The translations under genes and the position numbers were made by a program. Of a DNA stretch of 64,000 nt, positions 14,566 to 19,617 are shown in pieces; within the stretch, counting starts at the first letter, position 1; the number at the start of each line of letters is the position of its first letter. The notes below the pieces were generated by a model, which saw nothing but the letters and a program-made list of their open reading frames with translations, was not told the origin of the DNA and made no database searches. The stretch lies in NCBI GenBank assembly GCA_000004695.1, contig CM000151.3, positions 1,312,001 through 1,376,000 of the forward strand, read 5' to 3'. This DNA comes from Dictyostelium discoideum. Its lineage: Eukaryota.

Positions 14566-17500
14566 TTAATTTATTCTTTTTTTATTACTTTTTTTAATAA
14601 ATAAGGATTTATAAATAAAATAAATAAAAAGCAATGAAAAAATTAAACTTGTAATATAGAATCCTTTATAGGAGGGTTGTTGCAATGATTGAATAAATGA
14701 TGAATCAGCAACGATGAAAATAATTGATTGAAAGAAATTGAGTATTATCTTTGAATTATAGTTTATGTGTAATTCATTTTTCATTGATAATCTAGAGAAT
14801 TTCTTTTTACTTGATAAGAAATTGGTAAATAAAAGAAGTAATATTGAATAAACCAATTGAAGAGATTGAATTATATTCATAAAATAATTCATATTGTAAA
14901 ACATTGAGAGTTGTAAAATTACAAATATTGATAATCGTGTCATTTCTACTAAATCTAACCATAAATGAATTGCTTTTATTGTTAGTATTCCTCTTGTTCT
15001 TATAATATCAACGATATAAATTACTATTGCAACAAGTGTTAAAATTGAAACTGTAAATAGAAATATTTGTAATTTTGAATTACTTAAAAAACTAATGGAT
15101 GGATCTAAAGCTAAAGAGTTTGATATTGGGTTACTAATAAACAATGAAATAGAGTTGAATAATAATGGAATGAACATAATTTGAAATAATGACCATCTAA
15201 ACCTTGCCTTACTTGTTTCATTATTATTTAGAATTGGATAAGTTCCTAAAATTCTAATAATTGGTTTTAATAAAAAGCCTTTAAGGCTTGATCTATATAA
15301 AAGAAATACTTTTACTGTGATATCACTCAACGATATGAGAATCATCAAGATTATAATACCAAATGATGCCAAAACTTTATGATTATAATCCAATGTCTTC
15401 CAAAGACAAATACCTTGAATTGTATCTAAGGAAATTCTAAAAATTGGTAATAATGAAATACCACTATAGGAATAGAACACCACAGAGTTTACCTGTAGGA
15501 ATACTATAACTTTTACAAACAATGATCCATATAATTTATATTTAAATAATGATAGCGACAAAGAAAATAGTAAATAAACCAAAAGGATTGGCAATAATAA
15601 TAATGGTTGAAAAACTGTACAACATTGAATACCACTTTTAGCTATCACCTGTTGATTATTTTCATCGATACAATTAAAACATAATTCACCATTGGACCAT
15701 TTAGAGGAACATGTATTATTTGTTAAACATAAATCAAAAGGACATTTGTAAACTTTTAAAACATCTTGATCCAACATATAAAATCCATCCAATGTATAAA
15801 CTTCTAAATTTAAACAAGTTAATTGATTCCCATTACATACTTCACATTTACCACTAGTTTTACTTGGTGCAGAACCAACTGAACAATATTGACATGATGT
15901 TTTATCAATTGTTGAAATTTTAAATGGAGCACATCCAATTGTTTCCATAATAATAGCACCAATACTTTGTGATGATGATGTAACATTTACAAAATCATTT
16001 ATTATAATACTATAATTTCCTGGTATTGATGATGTTACAGGAAATAATAAATAACCTTGTCCTGCAATAACTTGACAATTTACAAATATTGATAATTGAT
16101 TATTATTATTATTATTATTATCACTACTACTACTACTACTATTACTATAACTACTATTATTATTATTATTATTATTATTATTATTATTATTATTATTATT
16201 ATTATTATTATTATTATTATTATTATTATTATTATTATTATTATTATTATTATTATTATTATTATTATTATTATTATTATTAATTAAAGTAATTGTTGTA
16301 TTAAATGAACCAAATATATCAGTTGAAATTTGACCATAATAATTTATAAACATTATTTGTATCATTGAAACTTCACCTCCATAAATTGAGGTTATATTTG
16401 TTGGAATTTCTTTTAAAGATGATGATAAACTATTCTCACCATAGAAACAATAATTATTTAAGAGGTGATTATCAGTATTAATATTTGATGGTGATGGAAA
16501 ACTTGAATAGATTGCACCACCACTTTGTTTACCATAATTATTTAAAAGGTGATTTCCATTAAACAAGAATAAATTTGAATTAATTTGAGAATCAATATAT
16601 AAAGATCCACCCATATATGCTGTATTATTAATGAAATCACTACTTGTGATTAAAAAAGAGTAGTTTACATAACTAAGTGAATTACTCCAAAAAGAAACAA
16701 CACCACCTCTACTAAAAGGGAAATTATTATTTGACATATTACAATTTGAAATTGATAAATTACTATTTAAACAATCAATTAAACTATTTGGATAAATATT
16801 AAAATTATCATCCATATTATTATTATTATTATTATTATTATTATTATTATTATTATTATTATTATTATTATTATTATTATTATTATTATTATTTGTATTA
16901 CTACTACTACTAATTAATGTAAAATCATTTGAATAAATTGTTATATTTTCAAAATCAATAATTGAATTTGAATTAATGAATAATGTTGAATTCTCTTGAA
17001 TTCTATTTGAATTTATAAAACCATTAATAAAAGTAATAGTTGATTTTTCTTCAATAAACATTAAATTTGAAAAGAAATGATTATCATTTATATTGAAATT
17101 ATTGAAGACTGCATTTGTAGATTGAAGTATGAATTGAGCAATATAAATTGGATAACCATTTATACCACCATAAAATGGGAATGGAAATACATTATTTGAG
17201 GATATAGTTGTAACAACACTATTATCAGAGTAATTAAAACCATTGATATCTAAATAACAAAAATAGCAGTACAATAAATAATTGAAGAAATAATTTGATT
17301 GTAAATTTAAATCTGTAAAATTTACATGTGAATTTGAAAATGCGAATAAATAATCTATTGGGAATTCATTTTCTATCATTGAGAATCTATTGATTTCACC
17401 ATTGGATGACTCCAAATACAAGAATGAACCAGTATTATTTTGAAATGAAATCTCATTGAATTGGAATTGACCAAGGAAAGCAGTGATAGTTGGATAGAAT

Positions 17501-19617: not shown

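Follow-up and report, generated by a model that had tools for sequence, protein, structure and literature searches.

Introduction

Giant ectodomains anchored to the membrane are familiar from animal surface proteins such as fibrocystin (PKHD1), CEMIP/TMEM2 and polycystin-1, which combine PbH1 β-helix repeats or other giant ectodomains with membrane anchoring. PKHD1, CEMIP and TMEM2 are single-pass or secreted, polycystin-1 has 11 transmembrane (TM) helices with REJ, GPS and PLAT domains, and ELAPOR1 is single-pass. Among dictyostelids, a census of G-protein-coupled receptors (GPCRs) recorded only three family-2 members in Dictyostelium discoideum; in Amoebozoa it detected neither large N-terminal domains nor GAIN domains (PMC10445921). 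Here we analyze an open reading frame (ORF) of 1683 codons plus stop, at positions 14566–19617 on the minus strand of a 64,000-nucleotide stretch of D. discoideum DNA (GenBank assembly GCA_000004695.1, contig CM000151.3, positions 1,312,001 to 1,376,000). This whole stretch is called the window, and nucleotide positions refer to it unless another assembly is named. An earlier note on this DNA had likened the encoded protein to adhesion-type GPCRs or polycystin-like receptors. The sequence is best explained as a functional gene with one exon, whose product is a glycosylated protein that spans the membrane several times. By profile and motif alignment we assign this protein to an uncharacterized protist family, whose hallmark is the fusion of a nine-helix TM domain to a conserved Cys-rich stalk with an ephrin-receptor-like and a DUF7630-like part.

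Results

A single-exon gene for a giant membrane protein

The ORF starts with ATG, is uninterrupted, and is also intact in five other assemblies. Since stop codons arise often by chance at the guanine-plus-cytosine (GC) content of the window (about 22–25% overall and 15–31% per 2 kb), an ORF of 1683 codons lies far beyond chance expectation. The protein is rich in Asn (16.6%), Ser (13.4%) and Ile (12.4%), and 40 N-x-S/T sequons fall within residues 30–1225. About 1300 residues are predicted to lie outside and a short basic tail inside. The N-terminus carries a predicted signal peptide (residues 1–26; 19540–19617, minus strand), assigned from hydropathy and a conserved KSQ motif rather than by a dedicated predictor: a hydrophobic core at residues 3–21 is followed by a cleavage site between VKS and QQ, and the (V/I)KSQ(Q/E) motif after this core is kept in paralogs and orthologs.

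A conserved stalk joined to nine helices

The Cys-rich stalk (residues 1229–1333; 15619–15933, minus strand) contains 13 Cys, all 13 of which are invariant in a 24-sequence family alignment, and ends in a CC pair just before TM1. Its first half matches the ephrin-receptor-like repeats of ELAPOR1 by profile (E 2.5e-6) and resembles ephrin-receptor/TNFR-like modules, and its second half aligns with the segment that Pfam assigns to DUF7630 in relatives; the isolated target stalk gave no direct DUF7630 or Ephrin_rec_like match in Pfam at E ≤ 10. A 14th Cys, Cys1404, lies in the first extracellular loop (ECL1) and is present in at least 90% of sequences. The odd number of Cys in the stalk suggests a disulfide between the stalk and Cys1404, which would hold the stalk tightly against the bundle of helices.

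The TM domain (residues 1338–1682; 14572–15606, minus strand), which ends in the short basic C-tail, was delineated from an AlphaFold model, loop charges and alignment. Hydropathy gives 8–9 hydrophobic segments between residues 1328 and 1675. The AlphaFold model, built on the 24-sequence alignment (predicted local distance difference test, pLDDT, 87.4; predicted template modeling score, pTM, 0.88) in place of an earlier, unusable run on five sequences (pLDDT 44), has nine long helices at residues 1338–1357, 1366–1380, 1411–1430, 1467–1491, 1515–1543, 1549–1571, 1576–1603, 1612–1637 and 1648–1682. Lys and Arg cluster in the C-tail and in four of the loops (TM1-2, TM3-4, TM5-6, TM7-8), and none occurs in the loops TM4-5, TM6-7 or TM8-9; an N-out, C-in topology fits this pattern. 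Every element of the layout read earlier from the letters alone (a signal peptide, an ectodomain that is large, repetitive and rich in Asn, a juxtamembrane module rich in Cys, and multiple TM helices) was found, and the proposed topology holds, with nine helices in the model, 8–9 hydropathy segments and a hydrophobic N-terminus.

Several positions within the TM domain are conserved across the family. Gln1375 in TM2 is invariant in the 24-sequence alignment, and the ECL1 motif LPxFRxSxD...C1404 (also written LPLFRxSxD..C) is conserved. The loop before TM6 carries the family motif YRxxxxWW(D/E)....R, which is degenerate in the target orthogroup as HLWLD, and a P(Y/F)....N..E motif follows TM7, the P of PY being replaced in the target orthogroup (TNF). 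No Pfam family covers the TM region in a scan of 30 family members. With the fold compared to the PDB only, Foldseek of the TM model gave a best E of 0.54 and TM-scores ≤0.2, with GPCR entries only at E about 2–5. As modeled, the nine-helix domain is thus one that lacks a Pfam model and a relative among solved folds.

These data bear directly on the idea of a divergent adhesion-type GPCR or polycystin-like receptor, in which a 7TM or 11TM core would stand behind an autoproteolytic GAIN/GPS stalk. Such receptors have a similar layout, with a signal peptide, a giant repetitive ectodomain, a Cys-rich juxtamembrane region and multiple TM helices. However, the helices number nine, N-out and C-in, not seven or eleven, and Pfam 7tm_1/2/3, GPS, GAIN, REJ, PLAT and PKD_channel are absent from the whole protein at E ≤ 1 and from the isolated stalk and TM segments at E ≤ 10. 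None of the 30 family members matches GPCR- or polycystin-type Pfam families, and the Foldseek comparison of the TM model with the PDB returned no GPCR or polycystin fold match. The sequence before TM1, ...AKSGIQCCTVFQ, has no HL(T/S) GPS cleavage motif, and the GPS/GAIN-like domain for which the earlier note had proposed to look did not appear in Pfam scans of the whole protein or of the isolated stalk and TM segments. The GPCR census (PMC10445921) likewise counts against an adhesion GPCR. Because there are nine helices, no signature domains and no fold match, kinship with GPCRs or polycystins is not supported: the analogy of layout stands, the kinship falls (no 7TM, GPS/GAIN or PKD signature), and we regard this explanation as extremely unlikely.

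Relatives with the same stalk and TM module

A full-length word-indexed search found five Dictyostelium paralogs at 28–37% identity, collinear from N- to C-terminus; the same kind of search with the C-terminal part or with residues 300–900 retrieved nothing, low-complexity words having saturated its candidate filter. Two large protein libraries held no exact target product and nothing more than 44% identical, and the whole orthogroup was absent from them. A profile built from the last 500 residues, run exhaustively with HMMER, retrieved 52 proteins at E ≤ 1e-3 (21 at E ≤ 1e-30); they form three groups, namely dictyostelid-like paralogs, a second dictyostelid-like clade with longer ectodomains, and GC-richer eukaryote-like sequences. 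Pfam scans of 30 family members gave matches to Beta_helix in 10, DUF7630 in eight, Chlam_PMP in three, TNFR_ELAPOR1_6th in three and Ephrin_rec_like in two. The target aligns with the family over the full length of stalk and TM domain and shares its invariant Cys, the Gln in TM2 and the ECL1 motif.

The same module is joined to other ectodomains in distant relatives. P0048 carries Peripla_BP_6/ANF_receptor (Venus-flytrap), then DUF7630, then the TM domain with the family's WYYE motif, and P0042 combines FG-GAP, Ephrin_rec_like, DUF7630 and the TM domain. The heads seen with the stalk plus nine-helix module are β-helix/PMP (polymorphic membrane protein), Venus-flytrap and FG-GAP.

One paralog on another chromosome, DDB_G0289049 (P0005, strain AX4), has a gene model in which the TM2 to TM5 region is missing and the C-terminal sequence is unrelated; either the gene is mis-modeled or the copy is decaying. 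One candidate relative was set aside: chain U2 of PDB 7w5z, a mitochondrial complex IV entry, is a 3634-residue Tetrahymena 'Transmembrane protein, putative' that matched the broad profile at E 1e-23 with a very high bias score, but the match was not reproduced with the C-terminal or close-clade profile and is not relied on; a paper based on this entry does not discuss the chain.

A predicted β-helix ectodomain ending in PMP-like repeats

The Asn-rich repetitive ectodomain (residues 27–908; 16894–19539, minus strand) opens at residue 27 with the conserved motif NIYINSIDGDDNGSGTINDPYKTIC and is predicted to form a right-handed β-helix on the basis of self-repeats and of profile alignment with a Beta_helix-positive clade. 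A profile of the close clade aligned by hhalign with the sister dictyostelid clade that has Pfam Beta_helix matches over 1358 columns (probability 100%, E 8e-71). The alignment starts at a shared N-terminal motif, (N)IY(V/I)..(N)G.D..GNGTI.NP(F/Y), which we take to be like the usual N-terminal motif of bacterial β-helix proteins. The family profile is also strongly self-similar over positions about 75–960, with 12 off-diagonal alignments at probabilities of 94–99%. Pfam Beta_helix (PF13229) matches 10 of the 30 family members (best E 1e-24) and neither the target nor its orthologs, and simple hydrophobic autocorrelation of the ectodomain revealed no significant or clear coil period.

A PMP-like repeat segment (residues 935–1060; 16438–16815, minus strand) is marked by FxxN and GG(S/A)(L/I)Y motifs, with the FxxN and GGA(I/L/V)-type repeat motifs located at residues 995–1037. 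The close-clade profile matches the PMP-like Rhombotarget A (PDB 9cdu) at E 4e-4, and the E value for Pfam Chlam_PMP is 4.8 in the target (insignificant), 0.005 in paralog P0003 (sub-threshold) and 9e-8 in a distant member. A short conserved segment, residues 1061–1228, connects these repeats to the stalk. From these profiles we infer a right-handed parallel β-helix that ends in PMP-like coils and presents an adhesin-type or glycan-binding-type surface. The β-helix-like ectodomain of the earlier prediction thus finds indirect support through the family profile, namely the long alignment, the self-repeats and the PMP-like motifs.

The main rival to a receptor is an enzyme that acts on carbohydrates and is anchored in the membrane, or a fusion of such an enzyme with a transporter. 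The β-helix would then cleave or alter a polysaccharide outside the cell, such as bacterial wall, cellulose or the matrix of the slime sheath, and the nine helices would anchor the enzyme or import its product. Pectate lyases, GH28 enzymes and their like do fold as a right-handed β-helix, conserved polar residues lie inside the TM helices, and among PDB entries the broad profile weakly matches a lacto-N-biosidase at E 0.004 and a xylosidase at E 0.03. These matches, however, are above usual significance and disappear with the close-clade profile, and the clearest sequence signal is PMP-like, an adhesin-type repeat. Neither Pfam nor NCBIfam gave a CAZy-type match in the target, nor did Pfam in the 30 family members, and relatives join the same TM module to non-enzymatic binding domains (Venus-flytrap and FG-GAP). 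An enzymatic role appears unlikely to us.

Conservation, selection and gene models

Syntenic loci were reached through orthologs of the neighboring TRAF gene, and a gene at the target position is called in all five annotated assemblies. The order of TRAF gene, target and convergent ComC-like gene is kept in six genomes, in which the ORF is intact at 1661–1730 codons and all indels are in frame. The uninterrupted ORF encodes 1683 residues in a second D. discoideum assembly (L004; 99.86% nucleotide identity to the window, no indel), 1661 in a third, more divergent assembly labeled D. discoideum (L008; 94–96% nucleotide identity), 1706 in D. citrinum (L005; 76% amino acid identity), 1674 in D. 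dimigraforme (L007; 68%) and 1730 in D. firmibasis (L006; 63%). Ratios of non-synonymous to synonymous substitution rates (dN/dS, Nei-Gojobori) are 0.36–0.44 overall, 0.24–0.30 in the TM domain and 0.45–0.65 in the PMP-like segment, where they are highest; selection is therefore purifying but fairly relaxed. By these comparisons, the ORF is confirmed as a real and conserved Dictyostelium gene.

The same comparisons speak to the possibility that the ORF is decaying or without function, for instance a pseudogene or an artefact of low-complexity sequence. That view could draw on the lack of any protein more than 44% identical in the two large libraries, on the very biased composition with its long polyasparagine (polyN) tracts, and on the paralog model DDB_G0289049 without part of its TM domain. 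Against it, an ORF of 1683 codons at about 22–25% GC has stayed intact in six genomes with every indel in frame, dN/dS is well below 1, the family-invariant Cys and Gln are all retained in the target, and the gene is called in five annotated assemblies. We find decay scarcely credible.

The annotated products differ from the ORFs, at 1664 of 1683 residues in L004 (model at 11783–16903 of that locus), 1674 of 1706 in L005 (12175–17295), 1678 of 1730 in L006 (11720–16899), 1651 of 1674 in L007 (11983–17018) and 1659 of 1661 in L008 (11802–17067). Automated models apparently splice out pieces or run beyond the conserved stop, and in four assemblies the annotated products are shorter than the uninterrupted conserved ORFs.

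Labile polyN tracts and a variable patch

Two long, pure, in-frame (AAT)n microsatellites had been claimed for this ORF, and Tandem Repeats Finder (TRF) together with direct inspection established them as (AAT)26 and (AAT)42. The first (residues 909–934; 16816–16893, minus strand) is 100% pure. The second, pure at 16156–16281, is inserted in the segment between the PMP-like repeats and the stalk and continues as an AGT/TAT-interrupted Ser-rich stretch to 16099, so that the (AAT)42 tract and its Ser/Asn-rich tail occupy residues 1113–1173 (16099–16281, minus strand) in frame.

Tract lengths are identical in the near-identical D. discoideum pair (the window and L004). In the divergent L008 assembly, tract 1 has 23 Asn versus 26, and tract 2 about 9 versus 42. 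D. citrinum has runs of 55 and 35 Asn at positions other than those of D. discoideum, D. dimigraforme has runs of 35 and 12, again at different positions, and D. firmibasis has (NS)n and polyQ in place of polyN; tract 1 is nearly absent in other species, and tract 2 is replaced there by other low-complexity sequence. The suspected hypermutability of the tracts accords with these shifts in position from species to species and in length between divergent D. discoideum assemblies. Judged by these alignments, the tracts are labile, in-frame, lineage-specific insertions in the ectodomain, and we treat them as tolerated spacers rather than functional parts.

A different kind of variability is seen within the PMP-like repeats. 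All seven differences between the target in the window and in L004, six of them non-synonymous, fall in a variable patch at codons 990–1076 (16390–16650, minus strand), within 258 nucleotides (16391–16648); outside the repeats, the remainder of the 21-kb comparison between the window and L004 contains about two differing sites. At all seven patch sites the window has C or G, against A or T in both L004 and L008, and for five of the six changed residues the same amino acid is common to both other assemblies. The window allele appears to be the derived state. The patch coincides with the segment of highest between-species dN/dS, and no gene-conversion donor was found among the compared loci; the patch may have arisen by gene conversion from an ectopic copy, as a cluster of mutations or through positive selection acting locally, or it may be an error in the reference.

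Genomic neighborhood

The third of three tandem ComC-family genes (10780–14485, plus strand; LRR_ComC, ComC β-sandwiches, EGF, ComC supersandwich and TM) is convergent with the target, its stop at 14485 lying 80 bp from that of the target. The three genes (612–14485, plus strand), which the earlier note had described as an array of LRR-EGF-IPT genes, each encode LRR_ComC, two ComC β-sandwiches, EGF repeats, a ComC supersandwich domain and a C-terminal TM helix, and the copies are about 94% identical to one another over kilobases (cross-strain BLAST).

The earlier note saw here a possible co-evolving ligand-receptor locus. On this reading the target and the adjacent ComC-family LRR-EGF surface proteins would form a linked ligand-receptor or co-receptor pair and evolve together in recognition. 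The two genes lie convergent, their stops separated by 80 bp, in D. discoideum, D. citrinum, D. firmibasis and D. dimigraforme alike, both the target and the ComC-family protein are fast-evolving surface proteins, and a TIG-type surface-protein gene is likewise found two genes from paralog P0001. Conserved adjacency is nevertheless no evidence of interaction, because synteny is the default expectation among close relatives, and chance proximity is likely given the very many IPT/TIG/EGF surface-protein genes in Dictyostelium. We consider such a pairing very unlikely. The gene near P0001 (ACTFIW_009753), which lies two genes downstream (L001 16617–19075), encodes an LRR-like plus TIG-type protein, either secreted or anchored, and its position may be a coincidence, given the abundance of such Dictyostelium genes.

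On the upstream side, the neighbor is a TRAF-family gene of two exons (21399–21121 and 21027–19957; 19957–21399, minus strand), identical to AX4 DDB_G0272340. Farther away, the window carries a GSK3-like kinase and a DnaJ/Tmemb_185A gene. Just downstream of the kinase stop (22436), an intergenic segment at 22049–22229 shows dense mismatches and small indels relative to L004, which are probably misaligned low-complexity repeats. An ORF of 1679 residues at 28572–33611 (minus strand) was considered as a tandem paralog of the target and proved unrelated by comparison; it has no Pfam match, is coiled-coil-like (Q/E/K/L-rich), and is called as a gene of about 1780 residues in other assemblies. Two large ORFs at 34647–43471 (minus strand), of 2610 and 257 residues, appear to be the D. 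discoideum huntingtin homolog, the 257-residue ORF matching the huntingtin N-HEAT domain. A short-chain dehydrogenase/reductase (SDR) ORF at 63029–63823 is identical to AX4 DDB_G0272128. These identities assign the window to chromosome 2 of D. discoideum, from AX4 or a strain nearly identical to it.

Discussion

Our data suggest a surface receptor or adhesion sensor as the most likely function of the target protein, because of the exchange of heads among relatives, the adhesin-type ectodomain and the rigid, disulfide-rich stalk; from sequence, we hold this class of function with evenly balanced confidence. The receptor component is proposed mainly because the same stalk and TM module carries Venus-flytrap/ANF_receptor or FG-GAP heads in distant relatives. 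As a plausible mechanism, a ligand or particle would bind the β-helix, and the binding signal would pass through the rigid stalk to the nine-helix module.

Several observations weigh against this proposal. Plasma-membrane localization is assumed, and the nine-helix bundle, given the conserved polar residues in it, might just as well transport solutes or form a channel. The β-helix fold is no less characteristic of polysaccharide lyases and hydrolases, and the assignment of this fold depends on profile-level homology, because the target itself has no match in Pfam or NCBIfam scans and its isolated TM and stalk segments have none at E ≤ 10. The YRxxxxWWD motif is degenerate (HLWLD) in the target orthogroup, where the preceding loop is shorter than in the paralogs, and a dN/dS of about 0.4 is rather relaxed. 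A literature search found no paper on the target family or on DUF7630.

A bolder version of the receptor proposal is that the stalk and nine-helix bundle constitute an unrecognized, widespread, GPCR-independent protist receptor module that couples interchangeable ectodomains to intracellular signaling or to ion/solute flux. The D. discoideum orthogroup, in which the sites that vary between strains gather in the PMP-like repeats near the membrane, would then serve as a fast-evolving sensor of prey, matrix or kin. We put this forward as a tentative and somewhat doubtful possibility. If stalk and nine helices are indeed a signaling or transport unit that accepts varied ectodomains, they would represent a receptor architecture outside the GPCR, receptor tyrosine kinase and histidine-kinase repertoires of amoebae. 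Phagocytosis, adhesion and kin recognition are all studied with Dictyostelium as a main model, and this family of giant surface proteins, without described function, has several paralogs per genome and relatives in other protists; in D. discoideum, one member is open to genetic study. The architecture, together with the reuse of the TM domain under different heads, makes a good lead for a new receptor class, its function being what we infer from them. For genome annotation, the locus also carries the lesson that long in-frame polyN tracts mislead automated gene models.

Compared with known receptors, the target resembles adhesion GPCRs (family B2) in layout and presumed logic, with a large adhesive ectodomain, a juxtamembrane module and a helical bundle; adhesion GPCRs, however, have GAIN/GPS and seven helices versus nine in the target, and there is no sequence or fold similarity. 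Class C GPCRs share with the relative P0048 the order of Venus-flytrap, Cys-rich stalk and helical bundle, although the stalk of P0048 is of the DUF7630 type, its bundle is 9-TM rather than 7tm_3, and the target carries a β-helix instead of a Venus-flytrap. Fibrocystin, CEMIP/TMEM2 and polycystin-1 differ in that none of their signatures occurs in the target by Pfam scan, and the likeness to ELAPOR1 is limited to the disulfide-rich module. Chlamydial PMPs, PMP-repeat adhesins and Rhombotarget A have FxxN and GG(A/S)(I/L) repeat motifs like those in the predicted Asn-rich solenoid of the target, but these systems are bacterial and use an autotransporter barrel anchor or rhombosortase processing, whereas the target is eukaryotic, with a Cys-rich stalk and nine TM helices. 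The dictyostelid paralogs, namely DDB_G0289049 ('Transmembrane protein') and ACTFIW_009753, both of D. discoideum, DICPUDRAFT_76333 of D. purpureum (annotated as 'Right handed beta helix domain-containing protein') and RB653_007406 of D. firmibasis, are 28–38% identical to the target, reside at other loci and lack the shortened loop before TM6 and the degenerate WWD motif of the target orthogroup, but share with it the N-terminal NIY...GNGTI.NP motif, the repetitive ectodomain, the PMP-like GGxxY repeats, the 13-Cys stalk and the TM domain.

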